From Candidatus Sabulitectum sp. (GTDB taxonomy: Bacteria > Fermentibacterota > Fermentibacteria > Fermentibacterales > JCC-6): a DNA stretch of 64,000 bases. The stretch spans positions 45,861 through 109,860 of the forward strand of contig JAGLDY010000012.1 of NCBI GenBank assembly GCA_023145375.1, given 5' to 3'. This document shows, piece by piece, positions 44,847-57,722 of this stretch (position 1 is its first letter; each line of letters starts with the position of its first letter). Under the pieces are notes generated by a model. That model saw nothing but the letters and a program-made list of their open reading frames with translations, made no database searches and was not told the DNA's origin. Position numbers and translations under genes: made by a program.

Positions 44847-44895
44847 AGGCTTGACGCGGAGAAGGCTGATATTATGATACGCTGGCTTTGCAGTG

Positions 44896-44971
44896 GGGCT
44901 GTAGCTCAGTTGGTATGAGCACTTGACTGGCAGTCAAGGGGTCGCGGGTTCGATCCCCGCCAGCTCCACCA
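44896..44971 (+). tRNA. tRNA-Ala (anticodon GGC)
   Basis: Cloverleaf with a 7-bp acceptor stem that includes the G3:U70 alanine identity pair. Anticodon loop CU-GGC-AG. T-loop TTCGATC. CCA is encoded. Confidence 0.9.
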
Positions 44972-45529: not shown

Positions 45530-46003
45530 TTGAGAATAGCTGTTCTTTCTGATACTCATATCCCGGCAAGGCTTCAAAACTTGCCGGGACTTGTTTATGA
45601 AGCCTGCGCCGGCACTGATCTTATCATTCATGCGGGGGATATTGAGGACAAGGATGTTATCAATGACCTTCTCAGGCTGGCACCTGTAAAAGCCGTTCGC
45701 GGTAACATGGATTATGAAAATTACCCTGAGGCACTCACCCTGCACTTCTTGGGTTTCACAATCGCAATTGCCCACGGAAGCGGTTCATACGAGAATGTAA
45801 GGCAGAGGATGAAGAAAAAGTTCCAGAGCATAAATCCTGATATTATCATCCACGGGCATACCCACATATTCCACTGGAAAAAAGAACGCAATGTCTGGTT
45901 CCTCTGCCCGGGAGCTGTATCCAACCCTGCAGGAAGCCGTTCAATGGCCATCCTGACACTGGAAAGGAAAAAAGCACCCCAGGTGGAGAAAATCGTATTC
46001 TGA
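45530..46003 (+). CDS. metallophosphoesterase, YfcE/MJ0936-like
   Basis: TTG start. Motifs MRIAVLSDTHIP, HAGDI and GHTH. 157 aa. Confidence 0.85.
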   Translation: MRIAVLSDTHIPARLQNLPGLVYEACAGTDLIIHAGDIEDKDVINDLLRLAPVKAVRGNMDYENYPEALTLHFLGFTIAIAHGSGSYENVRQRMKKKFQSINPDIIIHGHTHIFHWKKERNVWFLCPGAVSNPAGSRSMAILTLERKKAPQVEKIVF

Positions 46004-46053
46004 CTTGAATACTCCGGAACTATTGACTATCTTCGGTCTCACATCAAAGTAGT

Positions 46054-46129
<76 letters not shown>

Positions 46130-46327
46130 TTATCTGGCTTTACACAAAAGTTGGGGCTTCACAGACGTGAGCAATAGTTAGTATTCAATTTCGATTTGCC
46201 ATATGAATTTAGATCATAAGTGATGAATTCTTGTATCAAGGCCAGTTCTGCACATATTTACTTTCAACAGAATAGTATGTATTTTCAACTCTTATTGAAA
46301 GATCACATCACCTTCGTAGGGAGAGTT

Positions 46328-46678
46328 ATGTCAATAATCTATCTTCTAATCCTCAAAGTAATTTTAAGTCAGGTGTCAGCAGATATAGATACCGGAAGTA
46401 TATGTGGCACTGTGACTGATACTAGAGGAAACCCTCTAGTTGGAGCAACGGTTATGATTGTTGGAACTGCATACGGTGCCATGACAGATCCATTTGGTTT
46501 GTATGGAATAGAAAATCTGGCAGCAGGAAAGTATACAGTTGAAGCCAGAATGGTTGGAATGTTAGCGAATACTGTGGATGGAGTAGAGGTAGTTGCAGAT
46601 TGCATAACGACTCAGGGTTTCTCCCTAGCCACATATGGTTTATCAGCTGACGATATACCAGTATTAATCAAGATCTGA
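46328..46678 (+). CDS. small secreted protein with a carboxypeptidase-regulatory-like (CarbopepD_reg_2-like) domain
   Basis: GGGAGAG SD, then ATG at 46328. Signal peptide. ICGTVTDTRGNPLVGATVMIVGT...GKYTVEARMVG beta-sandwich signature. Confidence 0.55.
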   Translation: MSIIYLLILKVILSQVSADIDTGSICGTVTDTRGNPLVGATVMIVGTAYGAMTDPFGLYGIENLAAGKYTVEARMVGMLANTVDGVEVVADCITTQGFSLATYGLSADDIPVLIKI

Positions 46679-46679
46679 T

Positions 46680-48245
46680 ATGAGCAGACAATCACCTGCA
46701 CATTGCCTGAAAATTTTGACATTTATAACCCTGGTGTGCTTGTTTTTTCCTCTACAAGCCCATGGAGACACATCAAGTCTGACAGCAACACAAACAAACT
46801 GGGCAGGTGGATTACCACATTCCAGACCGTATGTTGCCTTGTGGTCGGATATGTTCGAATCATCATATGCAGTCGATTGGTCGGATACCCCAGGTTCTCT
46901 AACTATTGTAAGTGGATTTGAGAGGAAGATTATTTGGTACGGAGGAAGTTTATCAATAACGCACTTCACTCCCTTTGATGTTGATTCCGATGGTGATCTT
47001 GATATGTTTTTTCTGCAAAATACCGCCCAGGTTGGATGGTTGGAGAATTTCGATTGTGAACAGGGTTGGGTATTACATGAAATAGAGCACCCAATCTATC
47101 AGCCCAAAGCACTTGTTGCAAATGATTTTGATGGAAATGGATTCCCTGATCTAGCTGTAAGCTCAAGACAAGATGGACTCCTGATGCTTTATCAGGTGTC
47201 TGAAGACAGATGGGAAATCGAGCACATTGACAGGCTATTTTATAGCGGTTGGGATCTGGACACTGCAGACATTAACAAGGATGGAGTGGATGATCTGGTC
47301 GGTATTTCATGGGTACCGAATTACATCTGCTGGTGGGAAAACCCGGTCTCCATGCTTGAGAATTGGAATCCTCATATCATTGCTGACCTAGAGATTGCCA
47401 GAAACTCAATCTTGATCGATGACTTCGATGGAGATGGCCTGACTGAGGTATGTGCCTTTTCCCCAAGCAATACATGGGCTGGTGTAAATTTTTTTGTACA
47501 GGGTGATAGCTACAGAGAACCCTGGAAAGAATTACGGTTTGGTGATTGGACAGATGACGTCAACCATGTTGCTGTTCTGCAAAGATACGATGATGATAAC
47601 CAACATACTTTTAGCGGCTTGGCTATCGGTAAACAAGGGCACAATTCATCGGAATATGGATTCTTCATTCTTAATTCCGAATACGTACGTCAGCATACAC
47701 TTTCTCTTGGAAGAGAGTCTCCACAAACGGCTTTTATTCGTACGGGTGATATTGATGGGGATGCCGATATGGACATTTGCATAAATGCCCGCTGTTTTGA
47801 GAATGTTGAAGATAAATCCACCTGGATTCCGCACAACTATCTTGATAATGTTTCGACTAACATGCAAATTTCAAATCCAGTGTGTGTTGACCTTGATGGC
47901 AATGGGACCGACGAACTGGTTTATATAGAATCTGGTTCTATCTGGTTTGTTGATCATTCAATGCTTGTTTCCAGGGGTGAACTTACTTCACATTACTTTG
48001 AGCCCCAGGAGGTTCAGGAATGGAAACGCTTATCCTGGGAGTCAGAAGAACCCAGTGGTACTTCAGTATCAATGTTCTTCAGATACAACCGGCAATCTGA
48101 TTGGATAGGACCTTTCAGAGAATCCATAGATTTGACTGAGTATGAATCAGAGGGGATTAACCAGTTTCAGTACAGGGTGGTTCTTGAATCAGATTATCCA
48201 ACAGTATCACCCGTTCTTCATAGCATTACTGTGGAATGGGAGTAA
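46680..48245 (+). CDS. FG-GAP repeat (integrin-alpha-like beta-propeller) secreted protein
   Basis: Signal peptide. At least 6 FG-GAP Ca-binding loops (DVDSDGDLD, NDFDGNGFPD, DINKDGVDD, DDFDGDGLTE, GDIDGDADMD, VDLDGNGTDE). Confidence 0.75.
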   Translation: MSRQSPAHCLKILTFITLVCLFFPLQAHGDTSSLTATQTNWAGGLPHSRPYVALWSDMFESSYAVDWSDTPGSLTIVSGFERKIIWYGGSLSITHFTPFDVDSDGDLDMFFLQNTAQVGWLENFDCEQGWVLHEIEHPIYQPKALVANDFDGNGFPDLAVSSRQDGLLMLYQVSEDRWEIEHIDRLFYSGWDLDTADINKDGVDDLVGISWVPNYICWWENPVSMLENWNPHIIADLEIARNSILIDDFDGDGLTEVCAFSPSNTWAGVNFFVQGDSYREPWKELRFGDWTDDVNHVAVLQRYDDDNQHTFSGLAIGKQGHNSSEYGFFILNSEYVRQHTLSLGRESPQTAFIRTGDIDGDADMDICINARCFENVEDKSTWIPHNYLDNVSTNMQISNPVCVDLDGNGTDELVYIESGSIWFVDHSMLVSRGELTSHYFEPQEVQEWKRLSWESEEPSGTSVSMFFRYNRQSDWIGPFRESIDLTEYESEGINQFQYRVVLESDYPTVSPVLHSITVEWE

Positions 48246-49730
48246 CTATTGCTTTTCCAGTGTGAATGTTGCTATTTCTCTTCGCTCGTCGTCAGATAGA
48301 TTCACTTCGTACAATCTACCCTCGATAGAATCACTCAGAAGCGAGCAGTCTATCAATCTGGCAATAAGAAAATCAGATGTGTTTGCATGGTTCGAATAAC
48401 TGGGAATACTTGAGAAGTGCAGTAAAAGAGCAGTTGAGTCATCATCTGGATAATCGAACAATGCACTGTTGTGAATTCTGATATCATTGCCGTATGGGTT
48501 CGTTTCATATTCTATCTGAGTGTAAGTTACTCCATTGTATTCCAGGAGTGCTTGACCCGTTTTATTAAATGACAGAGATGAACCATCAATATCTATGGAA
48601 CTCAAAGTATCCGGTACAGTTTCTATCTTGTAACTCAATAAACAGTAGTCTATAGCGCATCCCGAGTAGAAAACAGGTTCGGAATCTCTCGACTCCACAT
48701 AGTATAAAGAGCCATTAAATTCTCCATTTTCCAATGCTTCTATTATTGTCATAAGAATGGGTTTCCTGGGCTCACTGCTAAGGTCGTCCAGTCTTAGAAG
48801 AGTATTGCGAGTCGAGGATCTGCCTCCAGAGGAAGTAAATACGGGAAACAGCATATCAAAGCTGTCGCTATCTCTCTGATAATATGGCCTTGATACAAAC
48901 CTCTGCCGTCCTGTAAGATAGAATTCTCTACCATCAGAAAGCAGATACGCGTCATCTGGAAGACCAATTGACCAGGGATCTGAATCATCAAGTTTTATTC
49001 TGAACGTGTAGACTGGGATTACACCAGACTCACAGTAACTGGTATATGATGCAATAGAGGAAAATGCAGGATATTTGGGCCATAGGTCGAAATAGTAAAC
49101 TCCATTGTTAAAGCTTCGAATCTCACCTGCTAGTGACAAATATAGATCTTCACCCTCTGAGCGATGCATTCCAAACTCTGTCAGATATGCCGAACCATTG
49201 TAGATAGTTCCAAAAACTCTTCTATCATCCCATCTGGTGAAATTGGTTTCTGTCACTCTGTCTGTACCGGAAGGAGAAACAGTAATCTCAATCTCTTCTG
49301 ATGATAGTGGAAAATGAACTGTAATTGCTGACTTGTGCTGATTGAACTCTGGAACTTTACCGGATGACAGAGATTGGAGATCCTCCACTGTAAGGATGTT
49401 TGGTGAGGACCTACCAACCATTGTAAAGAATCCATCTCCTGCCAGTCCATGTATTGATAGCTTACCTGAACTGTCTGCCAAGAATAAACCTTGCTGGTTC
49501 TCTTCCATTTCAATGGTGTACTCATGATAGAAAGTCAGTCTATCTCCAGGTTCAGATGCACCACTCCATACTCTAGATACCCTTACGGTGAGTGAATCAT
49601 ACTGATAGTCGACAAGCGTGCCTTCAATAACATGCTCATGCTGATGGTAATTCTCGTAATCAAAGCGTCCTGTTGGCGCCGTTATGACTGTCATGCCAAT
49701 AATGTATAGAAGTAACAGAATAATATGCAT
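48246..49730 (-). CDS. hypothetical secreted/membrane-anchored protein
   Basis: N-terminal hydrophobic segment MHIILLLLYIIGMTVITAPTG. No recognised domain. Its stop abuts the stop of the convergent FG-GAP gene. Confidence 0.45.
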   Translation of the reverse strand: MHIILLLLYIIGMTVITAPTGRFDYENYHQHEHVIEGTLVDYQYDSLTVRVSRVWSGASEPGDRLTFYHEYTIEMEENQQGLFLADSSGKLSIHGLAGDGFFTMVGRSSPNILTVEDLQSLSSGKVPEFNQHKSAITVHFPLSSEEIEITVSPSGTDRVTETNFTRWDDRRVFGTIYNGSAYLTEFGMHRSEGEDLYLSLAGEIRSFNNGVYYFDLWPKYPAFSSIASYTSYCESGVIPVYTFRIKLDDSDPWSIGLPDDAYLLSDGREFYLTGRQRFVSRPYYQRDSDSFDMLFPVFTSSGGRSSTRNTLLRLDDLSSEPRKPILMTIIEALENGEFNGSLYYVESRDSEPVFYSGCAIDYCLLSYKIETVPDTLSSIDIDGSSLSFNKTGQALLEYNGVTYTQIEYETNPYGNDIRIHNSALFDYPDDDSTALLLHFSSIPSYSNHANTSDFLIARLIDCSLLSDSIEGRLYEVNLSDDERREIATFTLEKQ

Positions 49731-50184
49731 AGTGAACGAATCATTATAAATTCTATTGTCTTGGTCAATGGATTGCTTTCTGTACAGTTCAACCGTTTCT
49801 TTTCCTACTTGCAACCCGAGAATGTCGCTGCAGATTTACAGGTCTGAATGCTGAGTACATTCGAGAGTAAATATGTTCATTCACCATCGGTTCAAATCAC
49901 TACTGAGGAGAATAAACGATATTTGTGGCTGCCATGGAAAGCGTGATAGTAGGGCTGATTTGCACGTGTTAATTAGAAAACCTGAGCTGAACTGCTTGGC
50001 GATTCCAATCCAGAAAAGGGTTCCAACTAAGAAACATTAGGGATACCGGCATTCAATCTGAATAATGACAATCCAACATGAGATAATAGAATAGGCTCTA
50101 CACCCAAAGTGCTTCCATTCCCTCGCCCCATAGAAAATACCTCAATAAGGGAATTCATATGGAGGTAGTCTGCTCCCAATTCTC

Positions 50185-50279
50185 ATGCTGCACCGTCAAA
50201 TCGTAGCTCATTGAGTTTTGTGATCCAGGAGATGAAAAGTTTCCAACTGGCAATCAGGTGGGATACCATAATTTAATCT
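50185..50279 (+). repeat. direct repeat copy 1 (about 95 bp), upstream flank of the two-gene cassette
   Basis: About 80% identical to 52715..52807 in the same orientation. Shared core TCATTGAG(T/C)TTTGTGA(T/G)CCAGG...GTTTCCAACTGGCAATCA...GGGATACCA. Confidence 0.7.
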
Positions 50280-50623
50280 TAACAAGGCTCTACACCATTA
50301 ACGGGGCAGTCCAAATCCACCTTAGTTATTGAGATTCCTCACCAAGTACTTAATCTTGTTATCTGACTTTGATATCTCTCAAGAAATACTATCGAAATAG
50401 GCATTGCATTTCCCATTACATAAAGCATTACAAATATTAAAATAGAAACCATTATTGATTCTATTGCTATTTGTATTGCAAATACTGTTATCTATTTTGA
50501 GAATGGATACCGTTATAACATTATGTTACTAAGTCACATAATTAAGATAATGTTTGCATCTTGTTCAGGGATATGCTATGTTCAGCAATGATGAACAGGC
50601 GTAAATATTGAACAAAGGATGGA

Positions 50624-51652
50624 TTGGCCATGGAAGGTATTCAGCGGGAACGGGAAAAGGAAACTCTGCAGGCAGCTCTTCTGAAGCTGCGCGAGGAGAT
50701 ACCAATAGGGGACTATACAGTGAAATGGGAAGTGCCCACAGGCAAGGGTACTGTATTTGATGCTGTGGTGAACTTCCAGAAAATTCTTCACGAGTACGCC
50801 GTGGAAATCAAAATGAACCTTAACCCCAAAATGCTGGACGCCATGGAATTCTACCTGAAAGAGGTAGGTAGAACGGTGATCCTCATAACTGATGCCATAA
50901 CAGACACAACCGCGACAGAACTCAGACAGAGGAATATCCAGTATATCGATACTCTGGGAAACATGTACCTCGCCCAGGAAGATCCCTTTGTTATTGTCCA
51001 CAAAACTGGCAGCAAACCACAGGGAACCACAAAAGAGAAACCGGCGAATGCATTCGCAGGCACAAGGCTCAAGGTGATATTTACTCTGCTTACAATCGAA
51101 GATGCGGTTAACCTTACCTACAGGGAAGTTGCCAATCTGGCCGGGGTAGCACTTGGTACCGTAGGATGGACATTCAGAGATCTGAAACTGCTGGGCTACA
51201 TCAGAGTGTACAAGCACAAGCGGAAAATCATGAACCGCGACAAACTGGTAAACCGGTGGCTGGAGGCATACCCTACCGAGATGCGTCCGAAACTCAATCC
51301 CAAACGCTTTACCGCTCCTGATAAAAATTGGTGGATTCAAGTAGATCTCAACCGCTATGGAGTGCTACTTGGTGGAGAAACAGCAGCAGCAGTGCTTACA
51401 AAACACCTTCACCCAGAGTATGGAGTGCTTTACACCCATGGTGATATTCACGAACTGGCAAGGGCGCTGAAGTTAAGAGCAGACCCGCTGGGGAACCTCA
51501 CTCTAATGGATCGATTCTGGAAGGGAGAAGCCCTTCAAATAAACAGAACTCCCATGGCTCCTCCCATCCTTATCTGTGCTGAACTCCTTGCAGAGGGTGG
51601 GGAGAGGAATATGGAAGCTGTGAAGATGATCCGGGAGAACTTTAATGTATAG
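50624..51652 (+). CDS. wHTH protein with an N-terminal PD-(D/E)xK-like motif. Candidate AbiEi-like antitoxin/regulator.
   Basis: FDAVVNF...EYAVEIK (D...ExK) in the first 100 aa. wHTH LTYREVANLAGVALGTVGWTFRDLKLLGYIRV in the middle. Overlaps the next gene by 8 nt. Confidence 0.45.
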   Translation: MAMEGIQREREKETLQAALLKLREEIPIGDYTVKWEVPTGKGTVFDAVVNFQKILHEYAVEIKMNLNPKMLDAMEFYLKEVGRTVILITDAITDTTATELRQRNIQYIDTLGNMYLAQEDPFVIVHKTGSKPQGTTKEKPANAFAGTRLKVIFTLLTIEDAVNLTYREVANLAGVALGTVGWTFRDLKLLGYIRVYKHKRKIMNRDKLVNRWLEAYPTEMRPKLNPKRFTAPDKNWWIQVDLNRYGVLLGGETAAAVLTKHLHPEYGVLYTHGDIHELARALKLRADPLGNLTLMDRFWKGEALQINRTPMAPPILICAELLAEGGERNMEAVKMIRENFNV

Positions 51653-52496
51653 AGTAACCGTTGATGATGATAAAAAGACTGTCCTTTCTGCCATTGATAT
51701 CGTTGCCGCGGAATTTGCAATATCCTGGTTTCTCTGCGGAGCATATTCCAGAGTACTTCTATGTGAAGAAGTTTTCAAAACTCCAATCGGACGAGCGACG
51801 TACGATCTTGATATTGCAATCTGTGTAAAATCTCTGGATGAGTATACCTGTTTCCGTGAAAGTCTATGCGAGAAGTATATGTTTATGCCAGATAGCAAGA
51901 AAGAGCAGAGACTCATTCACCGCATGAGCGGCATACCAGTTGATATAATTCCTTTCGGGAAATTCTCAGAACCGGATGAATTGTACAGATGGGGTCCAGA
52001 TGATGCTTTTGAGATGAATGTACTGGGTTTTGATGATGCCTCTCTCTCCTCAATCAGCTTCCTTGTAAATAGCGAACTTGAAATAAAAATAGCTGGTTAT
52101 GCAGAACAGTTCGTGCTTAAATTGTTTGCATGGAAAGACAGGCGATCTATAAGGGGTATTGATGATGCCGGAGATCTGGCATACTTTCTTATCCACGCCT
52201 TGAAGTCAGTTTCAGAAATGCATCTTTTCGGCAAGTACTATTCTGTTCTGGAAGAGGCAGGGTACGATGACGAACTTGCTTCCTGCTGCATTTTAGGTAA
52301 GCAGATAAGATCCGTTTTTTCAATGAAAACCGTTGATAAGACAATCGAAATTCTTGAGGATGAGTTTAATGCCGGTGATGATTCTGCTCTGATGTCCGAT
52401 ATGTACAGTAGATTCAGTTCCTGGCCCCGACCTGATGAACGTATTGCAATTGTCATCGATCAACTTCTTAAAGGTCTTTTAGCGGACGATCATTAG
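51645..52496 (+). CDS. minimal polymerase-beta-type nucleotidyltransferase, AbiEii/AbiGii-toxin-like
   Basis: NTase signature hG[GA]S CGAYSRVLL, then RATYDLDIAI (DxD), then the third acidic residue in PVDIIPF. 283 aa. Confidence 0.55.
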   Translation: MYRVTVDDDKKTVLSAIDIVAAEFAISWFLCGAYSRVLLCEEVFKTPIGRATYDLDIAICVKSLDEYTCFRESLCEKYMFMPDSKKEQRLIHRMSGIPVDIIPFGKFSEPDELYRWGPDDAFEMNVLGFDDASLSSISFLVNSELEIKIAGYAEQFVLKLFAWKDRRSIRGIDDAGDLAYFLIHALKSVSEMHLFGKYYSVLEEAGYDDELASCCILGKQIRSVFSMKTVDKTIEILEDEFNAGDDSALMSDMYSRFSSWPRPDERIAIVIDQLLKGLLADDH

Positions 52497-52714
52497 AATG
52501 TTCTACTAAAGAATGGCCGTGACACACAGCATGTAGAAGATTATTGAGATTTCTCCTCTTTTAATTTGTACTCATAGTGTTGAGGGTTTCGCCCGGTATT
52601 CATCCGGAAGAGTACATCATCAATTCCTGTTCCGTTAAGATTCTATTCCTTTACGGTACGTAAAGTCTATTGGTGAAGTTAGAGATAGAACACCCTCGAG
52701 AGCACTGTAATGTT

Positions 52715-52807
52715 ATGCTGCGCTGTGAAATAGCGACTCATTGAGCTTTGTGAGCCAGGGCATGAAATGTTTCCAACTGGCAATCAATTGGGATACCAGT
52801 TTAAATC
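52715..52807 (+). repeat. direct repeat copy 2 (about 93 bp), downstream flank of the cassette
   Basis: See copy 1. Lies about 220 nt after the cassette stop and about 175 nt before the LVIVD gene. Confidence 0.7.
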
Positions 52808-52982
52808 GATCCCTTCAATCTAATGGTTTCAGTTAGTGTCTACTCTACCGTGGCAGGATCAGTAATATTCCGGGGAGAGCAGAATATATATAGCATGAGT
52901 GTCTCTTATTTCCCTAATGCAAAAGGTGTATATTGAAGCACTGGTTTGAGTCGGAATATTCTCAACCAACGAGGGGATTGCT

Positions 52983-54317
52983 ATGAGTCCTGTGGGAGTT
53001 CTTCTTGTCGCTATTGCGATGTATTCGCCGCAGGTCTTTACAGATTCAGCTCTGCAGATAGGTATTCCAGGCGATACTTCGCACCACTGCTTCCCTGAAA
53101 CTCCGGATCGGCGGGGCGGGTCCATTTTATCCCGGGATGAGAATGATTCCTTGAATGTTAGTTTTGTGGGAAACTGGCCGTTTGGTCCTTCATGCTGTGT
53201 CTCTGTTGACTCCACTCAAAGCATTGCATTTCTCAGCTCAGGCGGAGGGGTTTACATCCTTGATATTTCTGACCCTGCTTCCCCTGCTGAGATGTCTGGA
53301 TGCATTTATACAAGAGGCAGAGTGATGGATCTCTTTTACCAGGAATCCGCCGGTAGACTCTATGCAGCAGTAGATGAGAACGGCATTGAGGTCTGGGACG
53401 TTCAGGACCTTGACAACCCATACAGACTTGGAAGTTGTGATACACCTGACAGGGCATGGGGGATAGTTGTATCCGGTGATCATGCCTATGTAGCTGATGG
53501 GGATTCCGGCCTCCGTGTAATTGATGTGACCACTCCATCAGCCCCTGTTGAAGTTGGCTGTTATGATTCGCCGGGGTATGTCCGAAGCCTGGTTATATCA
53601 GGTAACTACGCCTACCTGGCTGATGATTCAGCACTTCTTGTGATTGATATTTCCGTACCGTCCAATCCAACACAGGTGGGGTATTGCAACAGCGATTGCG
53701 AGTACGGCATTGCCATAGATAACAATTTCATTTACGCCACGGGTTATTCAGATGGCTTGTACGTTATTGATGTGTCCACACCTTCTGAGCCAGTGGAGGT
53801 CGGCTCCTACATTTCTTTTTCATTGTTGGGTCTGGAAGTCTCTGACGGCTATGCATACATTTCAAATGCAAACATTGGTTTTCTTGTTCTTGACATATCC
53901 TCACCTGCTGCTCCAATGGAAGTGGGGTACTGCAACACCCCTGGTACCGCTCTTCAGGTAGCTGTATCGGGAAACTACACTTATGTCGCAGATGGCGCTA
54001 CAGGTCTGCAGATTTACCAGTTCATACCAATGTCAATAGAGAAAGAAGAAGGGGTTGAGCAAGAGTCCAGCCTCTTTGATATTGTCTCGAATCCGTCCAG
54101 AGGCTCAGTCTCTTTCAGGATAGAATTATCATGTAATTCTCAGTTAGATATGACTGTCTACGATATCTGTGGCCGTGAGGTTCAGCTGCCGGCAAGCGGG
54201 AATTATCCTCCGGGACAGCACGAGATCATCCTGAACGACTTATCACCGGGAGTGTATTTTGCTAGAGTTGATACCGAAACATCCACCGAGACAAAGAAAT
54301 TTGTGCTGATCAGGTAG
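52983..54317 (+). CDS. LVIVD-repeat beta-propeller protein with a T9SS C-terminal sorting domain
   Basis: GAGGGG SD. Repeated xLxVIDISxPSxPxxVGxY units (YILDISDPASPAEM, LRVIDVTTPSAPVEVGCY, LLVIDISVPSNPTQVGYC, LYVIDVSTPSEPVEVGSY, LVLDISSPAAPMEVGYC). CTD MTVYDICGREV...GVYFARV. Confidence 0.75.
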   Translation: MSPVGVLLVAIAMYSPQVFTDSALQIGIPGDTSHHCFPETPDRRGGSILSRDENDSLNVSFVGNWPFGPSCCVSVDSTQSIAFLSSGGGVYILDISDPASPAEMSGCIYTRGRVMDLFYQESAGRLYAAVDENGIEVWDVQDLDNPYRLGSCDTPDRAWGIVVSGDHAYVADGDSGLRVIDVTTPSAPVEVGCYDSPGYVRSLVISGNYAYLADDSALLVIDISVPSNPTQVGYCNSDCEYGIAIDNNFIYATGYSDGLYVIDVSTPSEPVEVGSYISFSLLGLEVSDGYAYISNANIGFLVLDISSPAAPMEVGYCNTPGTALQVAVSGNYTYVADGATGLQIYQFIPMSIEKEEGVEQESSLFDIVSNPSRGSVSFRIELSCNSQLDMTVYDICGREVQLPASGNYPPGQHEIILNDLSPGVYFARVDTETSTETKKFVLIR

Positions 54318-54385
54318 CTTGAAAAGCTCTTTTTAGTAGAAAACCTCTTTATCAGCAGGTCTAAGCTCGCACCGAAAGGAATACT

Positions 54386-55390
54386 ATGAAAATGGATCTG
54401 GATTTCATGTCGACTCAAATGGATACAAAAGAGCGATTCGGAAGACCTGCACTTGAACTGCTTGGCTCCGGGCTGGGAGTTGATCAGATCCTGCGCATTA
54501 AAATATCTGGAGGCTTGTTCGGCAAAAGCGGGGAAATTCTCTCTGTGGACAGGTATCTGTCATTCAAGGCAAACAGCAAACTGTCAAAGCTGAAGAAATC
54601 AAAAAGTGTCATGTACAATGAGATATCAAGTCTGGAAATTGACTCAAGTTCGGACCACACATGCTGGGAATTTAAGACTGAGAAAGACAACTTCTACGTA
54701 ACTTTTACTAATCACGGCGGCAGAAATAGACTAAGTGCTCAGGATGTTTTCTGGTACGATGTGGATGCATTTCCGAAGAGATCCAGTGACTTTTATGAAC
54801 TTCTCGGCAAGATACTCACAGGTACGATCCTCACTAACGGCAACCTCGGTGATCCAGCTTACCACAGGGAACTCCTCAATAAAGCTGTAAAAGAGTTCGA
54901 GGAAGCCGTTGCTCTGGATTCACAAAAAATATCAGCCACTGATGGTGTTCGTTGTGCTCCCTGGGTTGTACTTCAGAACGCTTTTGCAATGTTCCTGGCG
55001 GGAGTTGCCGTTGCAGGAGATAGGAAACAGGAGGCGTTCCTGGCACTGTTCAACGATTTGAACGATATCTGGGCTCGAATCCTTGAACGACTGCTGCTGG
55101 AACTTGAAAGACAGAGTAAAAAAAGCAAATTAGCCGGTTACAGGGCAGAAAGTCTCGGAGAACAGTTCGACAGGCTCTCTTCTCTCTGGTATTTCCGTAG
55201 AATAATCAGACTGAATTTCGCGGAAAAACAGATGAATCCAGATGATATACTGTTCTGGAGCATAAAGCTCCTTCAACCCAGAGCAATGTATGACAGGCGG
55301 AGAGATTATTACGAATTGTTGCCGAAACCTAAAGTCGAGTTGATCGAAGCACACATTCAGGAGATCAAAGAATACCAGAGGAAAAGATAG
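54386..55390 (+). CDS. hypothetical cytoplasmic protein with a possible PH/GRAM-like N-terminal region
   Basis: AAAGGA SD. No signal peptide. No recognised catalytic motif. Confidence 0.45.
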   Translation: MKMDLDFMSTQMDTKERFGRPALELLGSGLGVDQILRIKISGGLFGKSGEILSVDRYLSFKANSKLSKLKKSKSVMYNEISSLEIDSSSDHTCWEFKTEKDNFYVTFTNHGGRNRLSAQDVFWYDVDAFPKRSSDFYELLGKILTGTILTNGNLGDPAYHRELLNKAVKEFEEAVALDSQKISATDGVRCAPWVVLQNAFAMFLAGVAVAGDRKQEAFLALFNDLNDIWARILERLLLELERQSKKSKLAGYRAESLGEQFDRLSSLWYFRRIIRLNFAEKQMNPDDILFWSIKLLQPRAMYDRRRDYYELLPKPKVELIEAHIQEIKEYQRKR

Positions 55391-55487
55391 GCTTATCTCC
55401 TGAAATAATATCTATAAACGACTGTTCTTTCATATGAAATAGCATATATATACAGTAACTTATTTGTCATTTTTTCAGGAGGTTGAG

Positions 55488-57722
55488 ATGTCAGGATTAA
55501 TCAGATTTGTTCTTTCAGTATTTCTTCTGAGCAGTTTATCATTTGCAGATATTCTTTACAACAACCTGATGTCGGGTTGTGCAGGTGAGGTAGTATCTAC
55601 TGATTCAAGAAGCATAACCGTTGCATTTACTCTTCAGTCGCTCCATGACGAGAATTCTGGTTTCAGCTCTGTGCTCAGGATACCGGAGGAAGGGCTTGCT
55701 GCGATCCCGGGGCTGCCGGACATGCCTGTGATCCGAAGAATGGTGCAGGTTCCTGATCGTGGGAAAATTGAGTATGAGATAATTGAAAGTGAATCAATTG
55801 TTATCCATCTTACAGGGGAAGTTCCCCCGTTCCAGCCTCTGCCTGTAAGGGGAGAGGGAAGACCTGAATTCGTAATTGACAGTGATTTCTACGACGGTTC
55901 TCATGGCTGGCCTCAATCTCCTGTTATTCTTGAGTCGGTAGAAGTACTAAGAGACATCAGGATCGCCCGTGCAGGTTTTTATCCAGCAAGTTGGAACCCG
56001 TCAACAGGAGATCTTGAGTTAACAACATCACTTACTGTAAGATTTTTTGCCACTGATGAATCAGGAGACAATGAACTTATCAGGACAAGTAGTGATCTCA
56101 CTAGAAGTTATCTTCATTTCTATGATGAAGTATTGGGTTTTGATGACTCCGGAAAAGTTGTTGATGGTTGTTACCTGGTGATATCAACATCAGATGGTAT
56201 CGACACTGTTTCCGAACTGATCAACTGGAAGAACAGAAAAGGGTTTGAAGTAGTTACAGGAATTATTCCGGAGATTGGAACAACTTCTGCCGAGATCGAT
56301 GCGTACATTGAGAACGCTTTCAGTAGTTGGCCGAACCCACCGGAGTACATCTTACTGGTGGGAGATGCAGACATGGTTCCCTCACCGGAGTACAATGGAC
56401 ATTCAGCTGACAATATCTATGGCGTAATAGGCTCGGGCTGTGTGCCAAGTATTCACGTGGGACGGCTTTCCGGAGAGAGCAGTTCTGATCTTCAGTATGA
56501 GGCATGGAAGATAGTTCAACACGAAATGGATCCTTACGAAACAGGAGAAAGCTGGTTCCAGAAAGGTGTAAGCGTTGGCCATACAGAGTTTGTGGAAAAT
56601 TCCTTGGATTACATGGAATACATGATGGCCGCAGGAATGGACCCAATTTGGTTCTGTGAATCCGGCGGTATCACACCAACGGTTTCAGCTCTATCAGACA
56701 CTATCAACAGTGGTATTTCAATCTTCGGCCTTTGCGGACACGGTAGTATTACAAGTATTTCACCTTCAGGTTTTAATATTGGGGATATTGCCGCTCTTCA
56801 GAATGGAAGAAAGCTTCCCTGGTTTGCTCTGGTTGCATGCCAGGTTGGCTGGTTTGACGGAAACTACTGTTTTTGCGAGGCGTTAATGGCAGAGGGTTCA
56901 ATCGGAGATGCAAGAGGCGGGATCGGAGCAATGGGTCCCACTACGAACAGTCCTTACGGCGCAGCGGATTCTCTTGTTAAATGGATATTCAAGGGTTATT
57001 TCCAGGAGGAAGTGCATCATATGGGAGCAGTAACCGACTGGTCCAAAAATGAGGTCTACAGTTATTTCGGTACATCTGCAGTGGATAACAATCACATGCA
57101 CATGCTCTTCGGTTGTCCTGAAATGGATATCTACTACGATACCGCACCTCTAGCTGTGATTGCCTGTACACATCCTGATCCTATACAGCCGGGAACATTT
57201 ACCTTCTCAGTTAACGCGGATGGAACCCCTCTGGAAGGAGCACTGGTAGCGGTGAAGATCTACGACTCCTCAACCGGTCCATGGATGGAATCCGACTATT
57301 CCGATGCTTCAGGGAATGTTTCTTTTTCAATCCCCGGTTTCGGAGCGGTATCGGATGTCTACGTGACAGCTACCGGTTTCAATATGTCCCCCTACCTCTA
57401 TCAGGCTGTTACATCTGTGGAGGAAGCGGAGTACATCAGCCTTAATTTTACAACCGGCCTTCGACTGGGTTCTTCTCCCTGTAGTGGGGCTCTTAACATT
57501 TTCTATACAGTTCATCCAGGCGCAGACGCCAGTGTAGAGTTCTTTGACCTTTCAGGAAGAATCGTACGACTCTTACCTCTCGATACAGAGTCAGGGGGAG
57601 AGATGCAGGTCGTATGGGATGGCAGGGGTTCAGACGGAAACCCGGTTTCCAGCGGAGTATACTATTGTAGATTGAGATCGGGGACTGAAAGCTGTGTTGA
57701 ATCTGTTTTGATGCTTAACTAA
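55488..57722 (+). CDS. peptidase C25 (gingipain-like) paralog with a T9SS C-terminal sorting domain
   Basis: GGAGG SD. Signal peptide. LLVGDADMVP, catalytic His in GLCGHGSITS and Cys in WFALVACQVGWF. CTD VEFFDLSGRIV...GVYYCRL. Confidence 0.8.
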   Translation: MSGLIRFVLSVFLLSSLSFADILYNNLMSGCAGEVVSTDSRSITVAFTLQSLHDENSGFSSVLRIPEEGLAAIPGLPDMPVIRRMVQVPDRGKIEYEIIESESIVIHLTGEVPPFQPLPVRGEGRPEFVIDSDFYDGSHGWPQSPVILESVEVLRDIRIARAGFYPASWNPSTGDLELTTSLTVRFFATDESGDNELIRTSSDLTRSYLHFYDEVLGFDDSGKVVDGCYLVISTSDGIDTVSELINWKNRKGFEVVTGIIPEIGTTSAEIDAYIENAFSSWPNPPEYILLVGDADMVPSPEYNGHSADNIYGVIGSGCVPSIHVGRLSGESSSDLQYEAWKIVQHEMDPYETGESWFQKGVSVGHTEFVENSLDYMEYMMAAGMDPIWFCESGGITPTVSALSDTINSGISIFGLCGHGSITSISPSGFNIGDIAALQNGRKLPWFALVACQVGWFDGNYCFCEALMAEGSIGDARGGIGAMGPTTNSPYGAADSLVKWIFKGYFQEEVHHMGAVTDWSKNEVYSYFGTSAVDNNHMHMLFGCPEMDIYYDTAPLAVIACTHPDPIQPGTFTFSVNADGTPLEGALVAVKIYDSSTGPWMESDYSDASGNVSFSIPGFGAVSDVYVTATGFNMSPYLYQAVTSVEEAEYISLNFTTGLRLGSSPCSGALNIFYTVHPGADASVEFFDLSGRIVRLLPLDTESGGEMQVVWDGRGSDGNPVSSGVYYCRLRSGTESCVESVLMLN

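Follow-up and report, generated by a model that had tools for sequence, protein, structure and literature searches.

A COG4861/PF09952 protein with a predicted PD-(D/E)xK-fold N-terminal domain, paired with a putative nucleotidyltransferase toxin in Candidatus Sabulitectum

What is a nuclease-like domain doing at the N-terminus of a putative antitoxin? The question is raised by an open reading frame (ORF) in a 64,000-nt stretch of Candidatus Sabulitectum sp. DNA (the window). A preliminary description, made from the letters of the window, had taken its product for an AbiEi-like antitoxin of permuted architecture, with a D...ExK motif placed before a central winged helix and an uncharacterised domain at the C-terminus, and had suggested that, if the motif was catalytically intact, the protein might be an effector. 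All the parts named there are present, from the ORF at 50624-51652 and the D...ExK motif to the winged helix in the centre and the domain at the C-terminus. What they amount to is the subject of the analysis reported here.

Read from a TTG at 50624, the ORF (+ strand, like every feature given below) encodes 342 amino acids (aa). The ATG two codons further on, at 50630, is the more likely start, because a Shine-Dalgarno-like AAGGA (50615-50619), which is kept in close relatives, lies 10 nt before it, the source assembly calls a protein of 340 aa, and the residue concerned, M3, is nearly invariant. The gene would then span 50630-51652. Residue numbers are counted from 50624 throughout.

By profile comparison the protein belongs to the PF09952/COG4861 family (MenA2-like), of which it is a standard three-domain representative; the literature uses PF09952 and COG4861 as equivalents (PMC7251935). 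The C-terminal domain seen in the preliminary description proves to be AbiEi_2: residues 201-339 (51224-51640) match PF09952 with 98.2 bits (cutoff 21; E 7e-28), and the same model is matched by all 34 aligned homologs. Winged-helix matches aside, this is the sole part of the protein covered by its own Pfam family model. Its motifs GGETAA, FW and RN are conserved, and a search for PDB matches to its fold found none. The idea that it might be a degenerate copy of the fold of the nucleotidyltransferase encoded downstream was discarded (hhalign probability, 0.1%).

The winged helix-turn-helix (residues 148-202; 51065-51229) lies in the middle of the protein, as had been proposed. HTH_Crp_2 and HTH_24 of Pfam match residues 157-209, CRP-family DNA-binding domains are matched at a Foldseek probability of 1.00, and among the 34 homologs HTH_24 is found in 21 and HTH_Crp_2 in 18. 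The segment AGVALGTVGW, which occurs family-wide in the winged helix, is the presumed recognition helix, and G178 and V180 are invariant in the homolog alignments. Between the winged helix and the N-terminal domain (residues 3-130; 50630-51013) runs a linker (residues 131-147; 51014-51064) that varies in length in the alignment; residues 134-139 within it are the one internal stretch where pLDDT drops below 50.

Sixty homologs, almost all about 340 aa long, were retrieved from 5.8 billion proteins. Overall, the homologs range from 334 to 397 aa and cover 72-99% of the query, and the aligned ones are collinear with it end to end, with all three domains. A profile of the N-terminal domain, compared with 1.84 billion representatives, retrieved 2,957 proteins, and in the best 150 of these the domain stands at the N-terminus of proteins of about 340-380 aa or of obvious fragments. 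Because the full-length homologs are collinear, the order of nuclease-fold domain, winged helix and AbiEi_2 domain is the norm for PF09952/COG4861 proteins, and the locus is a routine member of an already known family.

The neighbouring gene agrees with what has been described for this family, in which COG4861 and COG4849 form a known, tightly linked pair (PMC3985639). A 283-aa ORF (51645-52496), with GGGAGAA just upstream, overlaps the upstream stop codon by 8 nt (ATGTATAG). From its motifs and the Pfam matches of its homologs, the product is a putative toxin, a divergent DUF1814/COG4849 nucleotidyltransferase with all catalytic motifs. The segment G32-A33...R36...R50-x-T52-x-D54-x-D56 (51738-51812) forms the hG[GS]...DhD nucleotidyltransferase motif and is followed by D100 (51942-51944), K159-LFAWKD-R166 (52119-52142) and D174-x-x-D177 (52164-52175). 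In the alignment of toxin homologs G32-A33, R36, R50, T52, D54, D56, D100, K159, D174 and D177 are invariant, and KLFAWKDR fits motif III of COG4849, KLxAaxxR (PMC3985639). The protein itself, with a 100% identical counterpart annotated as hypothetical in a MAG of Candidatus Sabulitectum sp. (Fermentibacteria), has no Pfam match; 14 of its 25 homologs match PF08843 (AbiEii; best E 5e-11). When the toxin profile was compared with the PDB, only a weak match appeared, to the AbiEii/AbiGii-family nucleotidyltransferase toxin 8an4 (E 0.21).

The gene pair was followed in 80 species-level genomic loci, chosen for the peptide GVALG[TA]VGW, and genome contigs were scanned with a profile built from a 9-sequence alignment. 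Seventy-eight relevant loci had room for a partner gene; in 72 of them a homologous nucleotidyltransferase gene comes next on the same strand, directly downstream, as it also does in three distant relatives (L002-L004). The two genes form a translationally coupled module, with a DUF1814/COG4849 partner of the AbiEii/MenT type.

Upstream of the pair we found a candidate operator of 53 bp (50562-50614) in which four hexamer half-sites are arranged with nested two-fold symmetry about position 50588. TGTTCA occurs at 50562-50567 and 50579-50584 and TGAACA at 50592-50597 and 50609-50614, the last abutting the ribosome-binding site, so that the layout, with spacers of 11, 7 and 11 nt, is TGTTCA-N11-TGTTCA-N7-TGAACA-N11-TGAACA. 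The hexamer is found 69 times in the 64 kb, both strands counted, and four occurrences within 53 nt are therefore far above chance. When the upstream DNA of seven close loci was compared, the last ~90 nt proved conserved and the DNA further upstream diverged.

The element is conserved well beyond these close relatives. With one mismatch allowed per half-site, the composite TGTTCA-N10-12-TGTTCA-N7-TGAACA-N10-12-TGAACA is found immediately before the homologous gene in 59 of the 80 genomes (reversed-sequence control: 0), which span Proteobacteria, Acidobacteriota, Rokubacteria, Elusimicrobia and others, and a number of the 59 carry two tandem copies. In the 120 nt before the gene half-sites reach 30 per kb, compared with 0.76 per kb elsewhere. 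This conservation applies to the subfamily that shares the recognition helix, since the loci were chosen by the GVALG[TA]VGW peptide, and a conserved helix with a conserved site is what would be expected there. An RNA hairpin is a less likely explanation of the repeats: in one relative (L015) both right-hand sites read TGTACA and the left-hand sites carry no compensating change, which argues for recognition by a protein over an RNA stem. We infer that the protein binds the 50562-50614 element through its winged helix; with a single winged helix in each protomer and four half-sites to fill, a higher-order complex is implied.

These observations lead us to a reading that we regard as probable, namely, that the protein is an autorepressor and antitoxin with a non-catalytic nuclease-fold domain. 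The central winged helix would occupy the four TGTTCA/TGAACA half-sites and so repress the operon, as the deep conservation of the operator-like element suggests. As AbiEi and the MenA antitoxins suggest by analogy, the protein would also neutralise the nucleotidyltransferase, probably via its C-terminal AbiEi_2 domain. The N-terminal domain would have a true PD-(D/E)xK fold with an ancestral D-ExK site and, in this clade, most likely a non-catalytic role. The role that we prefer for it is oligomerisation and/or auxiliary DNA contact, by which four protomers could be brought onto four half-sites; going by the standard strand order, the invariant D109-x-x-G112-N113 hairpin would lie on the same edge of the sheet.

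A PD-(D/E)xK fold of the first 130 residues is very likely, judging by structure prediction. The full-length AlphaFold2 model, computed with 61 homologs as input, has a pLDDT of 88.8 and a pTM of 0.88, and a model of residues 1-130 reaches a pLDDT of 89.2. In the predicted structure of the domain, a helix (3-25) is followed by three strands (31-38, 44-51 and 58-62), a helix (68-81), a strand (85-89), a helix (94-102) and three further strands (106-109, 114-118 and 123-127). This a-b-b-b-a-b-a-b-b-b topology contains the alpha-beta-beta-beta-alpha-beta core of the PD-(D/E)xK fold. D46 (50759-50761), within FDAVVNF (residues 45-51), stands at the start of predicted strand 2, and E61 (50804-50806) and K63 (50810-50812), the latter being the last residue of EYAVEIK (residues 57-63), fall in strand 3 as E61-I-K63; these are the canonical places of the motif.

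Structure comparison with Foldseek points the same way. Against the PDB, the model of the N-terminal domain has no match below E 0.001; the best is 3DNX (E 0.019, probability 0.98, TM 0.47). The matches that superpose well (rmsd ~3-5 A) are 3DNX, Bax1, Card1, VC1899, DdmD, NucS/EndoMS, Can2 and Ecl18kI, all of which we take to be PD-(D/E)xK proteins, with 3DNX an MmcB-like one (PF06319). The BspD6I small subunit and the R2 endonuclease domain are matched as well, at an rmsd of 7-8 A, and the non-nuclease entries superpose at 9-13 A. In BFVD, a collection of predicted viral structures, the best match is unnamed (E 2.8e-3, TM 0.53), and the named matches are nearly all nucleases of the same superfamily (PD-(D/E)XK, Mrr-type restriction endonuclease, MmcB-like, VRR-NUC, Holliday junction resolvase and endonuclease). 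One member of the family has a weak Pfam match to MmcB-like (E 0.0015-0.0019), the family of the best PDB match. The REase-like core with D...ExK at its canonical positions, which the preliminary description had proposed, is borne out by models with a pLDDT of ~89 and by the nuclease matches, none of which reaches significance. No mention of a nuclease-fold N-terminal domain in COG4861 proteins was found in the literature searched, although a domain database may record one.

The likeness to the PD-(D/E)xK superfamily, whose nearest member is the MmcB-like family (PF06319, 3DNX), extends to the predicted core topology and to the placement of D in strand 2 and of ExK in strand 3. It does not extend to sequence, which has no significant match to any nuclease family, and the catalytic E and K vary within the clade of the query. 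The most conserved residues (D109, G112, N113 and A18) lie outside the canonical motif. D109 (50948-50950) is present in 209 of 210 sequences, G112 (50957-50959) in 206 and N113 (50960-50962) in all 210, and both D109 and N113 are retained in each of the 78 genomic loci in which the region is aligned. All three belong to F-I-D-T-x-G-N-x-Y, a motif of the hairpin that joins strand 5 to strand 6; T/A89 and Y91, where strand 4 ends, are conserved too. The standard fold has the strand order 1-2-3-4-5, with strand 2 antiparallel (SCOP definition); in it strands 3, 4 and 5 have their C-terminal ends on one edge of the sheet, where strand 2 has its N-terminal end. If that order applies here, D46, E61, K63, T/A89, Y91 and D109 may all belong to a single conserved surface.

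A displaced, non-canonical active or ligand-binding site, built from D109 and N113 together with D46 and making E61 and K63 dispensable, would fit this pattern, and it has parallels: in Cfr10I, NgoMIV and Ecl18kI an acidic residue of the site has been relocated elsewhere in the fold. Ecl18kI is among our Foldseek matches, and position 46 is acidic in 93% of the 210 sequences. We nevertheless hold such a site to be rather unlikely. The case for it is wholly inferential, a tight beta-hairpin may keep its D-x-x-G-N invariant for structural reasons only, and a few loci have N, G or Q in place of D46 and yet keep the toxin gene. It is just as doubtful that the domain uses a site of this kind to sense or cut nucleic acid or a nucleotide and thereby controls release of the toxin.

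A further alternative is that the domain is an active PD-(D/E)xK nuclease of the classical kind, the protein being a second effector or a DNA-cleaving sensor and not a passive antitoxin. The bare pattern says nothing in its favour: D-x(8-25)-[DE]-x-K occurs at least once in 82% of shuffles of the query protein, and taken alone the D...(D/E)xK pattern is no more than chance. The motif gains meaning because its residues fall in strands 2 and 3 and because their columns are among the most conserved of the domain, ranking 10th to 14th among 149 representatives (the best-scoring sequences, pairwise less than 50% identical). In this set D46 is D in 92%, E61 is E in 89% and K63 is K in 93%, and the triad is intact in 121 of 149 (81%). 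In the 210 sequences position 61 is acidic in 79%, position 63 is K in 80% and the triad is intact in 65%. Taken from these alignments, D-ExK is the consensus and the ancestral signature of the family. E61 and K63 are, in addition, lost together 19 times where about 9 would be expected (uncorrected for phylogeny), as for a functional unit. An intact triad in the query and in 81% of the 149 best-scoring representatives weighs against our preferred reading: many members, possibly including the query, could still be active nucleases.

The close relatives of the query, however, tell against an active nuclease in this clade, and we consider it unlikely. Among the 27 closest homologs (37-94% identity to the query), K63 is replaced in 22 and kept in five only; the residue is already V, Q or N at 86-89% identity, and N, I, H, Y or R beyond that, often a hydrophobic one. 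E61 is replaced in 13 of the 27, with V, A, D, L or M found in its place. D46, D109, G112 and N113, by contrast, are unchanged in all 27. With K63 varying so freely among near-identical proteins, the site would no longer be under selection in the clade of the query, and the intact triad of the query itself would therefore most simply be a relic. The earlier suggestion that the protein, if its motif was catalytically intact, might be an effector is weakened: the triad is complete in the query and D46 is conserved, but the homolog alignment proposed as a check returns substitutions at K63 and E61 in precisely the nearest relatives.

Loss of the triad, moreover, leaves the rest of the system in place. 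The triad is intact in 50 of the 80 species-level loci (~65%) and broken in 24 that keep the nucleotidyltransferase gene; a few of the 24 are alignment gaps or truncations, and at least 20 are clear cases. Four relatives with D-V-N (L012), D-A-I (L013), D-E-I (L014) and D-D-H (L015) in place of the triad have an intact toxin gene, keep the upstream operator element and retain the invariant D109, G112 and N113. No Pfam nuclease family matches the query. Loss of ExK as a consequence of toxin loss was also considered and set aside: an orphan with the toxin gene deleted (P0008/L011) reads D-V-N, and so does L012, with its toxin gene intact.

The ancestral, family-wide N-terminal domain of COG4861 proteins might be at work as a nuclease or as a sensor of nucleic acid, setting free a MenT/AbiEii-type nucleotidyltransferase once foreign or damaged DNA is detected, through either the classical D-ExK site or one based on the invariant D109 and N113; we find this improbable, if worth stating. 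Were it true, COG4861 would be a protein of three functions (sensor, repressor and antitoxin) and not a passive partner. In the literature searched the large partner is described as a putative winged-helix regulator only. Whichever role the domain has, the locus supplies a testable anatomy, comprising a nuclease-fold N-terminal domain with an eroding D-ExK, an invariant D-x-x-G-N hairpin, a conserved recognition helix and a 53-bp operator found across phyla. This anatomy bears on the workings of the whole COG4861 family, M. tuberculosis MenA2 included, in AbiE/MenAT toxin-antitoxin and abortive-infection systems.

COG4861 proteins have been treated as putative winged helix-turn-helix regulators and antitoxins (PMC3985639, PMC7450476, PMC7319586), and the COG4861 partner has been described as a putative winged-helix regulator with no sequence identity to the COG5340 AbiEi proteins (PMC3985639). 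The literature searched yielded no COG4861 protein with demonstrated DNA binding or toxin neutralisation. The M. tuberculosis pair consists of MenA2 (Rv0837c), which is uncharacterised, and MenT2 (Rv0836c) (PMC7319586, PMC7450476, PMC11375011). There, as in Candidatus Sabulitectum, a large COG4861/PF09952 protein is encoded directly upstream of a DUF1814 nucleotidyltransferase (PMC7319586, PMC7450476, PMC3985639), a comparison in which the shared COG follows from the equivalence of PF09952 and COG4861 (PMC7251935). MenT2 is the only partner toxin that has been tested, and its overexpression was not toxic (PMC7450476). With MenT2 not toxic and MenA2 uncharacterised, no mechanism can be transferred from that pair.

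The better-studied systems are more distant. In AbiEi-AbiEii of S. agalactiae and L. lactis, and with MenA3 and MenA4 (COG5340), a winged-helix autorepressor is encoded upstream of a DUF1814 toxin, and the promoter has inverted repeats (PMC3985639, PMC7319586); the layout here is similar, and autorepression would be its counterpart. The antitoxic activity of AbiEi lies in its C-terminal domain (PMC3985639, PMC7319586). AbiEi has two domains with the winged helix N-terminal, whereas the query has three, with an additional nuclease-fold domain at the N-terminus and the winged helix in the centre (148-202). Sequence similarity between the two is undetectable in the PDB profile search and, for 34 members, in Pfam: AbiEi_1, AbiEi_3 and AbiEi_4 match none of the 34, even at E up to 10. 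AbiEi and Rv2827c chains are likewise absent from the PDB profile search and from the 50 best Foldseek matches.

The Pfam name AbiEi_2 and the DUF1814 nucleotidyltransferase partner, shared with AbiEi, might be cited for deriving the protein from a COG5340 AbiEi antitoxin by circular permutation or domain swap. Such an origin is therefore most improbable, and the permuted architecture of the preliminary description gives way to the normal layout of a separate family, given the lack of AbiEi matches in Pfam and 60 homologs that are nearly all of the same length and, where aligned, collinear. The AbiEi name reached the PF09952/COG4861 family through gene-neighbourhood analogy.

Other searches added little. 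PHROGs, PADLOC and NCBIfam held no meaningful match for either protein of the pair, and no Rfam family was found within 49500-53200. Profiles of the full protein and of the N-terminal domain, compared with PDB chains, gave weak winged-helix matches, one de novo designed protein and a short beta-alpha-beta resemblance to FEN1 (E 0.27), nothing informative. Plasmid-borne homologs bear the PGAP names 'type IV toxin-antitoxin system AbiEi family antitoxin' and, for the gene that follows, 'nucleotidyl transferase AbiEii/AbiGii toxin family protein'. The scaffold from which the 283-aa protein comes is 393 kb long, and the neighbours of the pair are genes for surface and secreted proteins.

Directly upstream of the COG4861 (AbiEi_2) antitoxin-like gene (50624-51652, plus strand) lies a 53-bp nested palindrome, TGTTCA-N11-TGTTCA-N7-TGAACA-N11-TGAACA (50562-50614), which is probably the operator recognized by the winged helix of the encoded protein. 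A scan of the regions just upstream of the homologous genes at loci L009 and L011-L088 showed that 59 of 80 genomes, representing several phyla, keep this four-half-site composite 5' of their COG4861 gene, and a number of these 59 have it doubled in tandem. The palindrome is separated from a divergent 522-aa open reading frame on the minus strand (48246-49814), which has no Pfam match, by a long stretch of A+T-rich intergenic DNA, roughly 750 nt in all (49815-50561). This region contains several further imperfect inverted repeats, one of which, ATTATGTTACT/AGTCACATAAT at 50520-50542, overlaps a -10-like CATAAT; the imperfect inverted repeats of 49815-50561 are not conserved in relatives.

In the downstream nucleotidyltransferase, a putative toxin (51645-52496), an invariant threonine, T52 (nt 51798-51800), stands two residues ahead of the catalytic DxD, within the motif R50-A-T52-Y-D54-L-D56. 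Auto-phosphorylated threonines have been described in MenT1 (T39) and AbiEii (T65) (bioRxiv preprint 10.64898/2026.01.19.700257); T52 might correspond to them.

Among Ralstonia megaplasmids the same two-gene module is widespread: it occurs on that of Ralstonia pseudosolanacearum GMI1000 (L089, 2141-4113) and in 106 other Ralstonia records. The N-terminal domain of the Ralstonia module is far more divergent, such that the tblastn alignment begins only at residue 102 and the D-ExK motif is not recognizable there; the F-I-D-x-x-G-N hairpin persists, as does the nucleotidyltransferase encoded downstream. An orphan antitoxin-like gene, encoding a protein (P0008) with 79% identity to the query, is present in Candidatus Sabulitectum metagenome-assembled genomes (L006, 5016-5089; L007, 4983-5056; and L011). 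Its partner nucleotidyltransferase gene is lost by deletion: all that survives is the first 15 or so codons and a short fragment from the interior, and the next gene encodes an unrelated ABC-type ATPase.

The module and its neighbors might belong to an acquired island, given that genes for tRNA-Ala(GGC) (44895-44971) and tRNA-Arg(CCG) (46054-46129) are located 4.5-5.7 kb upstream of the module and that G+C content across 46-56 kb (profile over 46000-56000) is 0.41-0.45, down from about 0.47-0.49.
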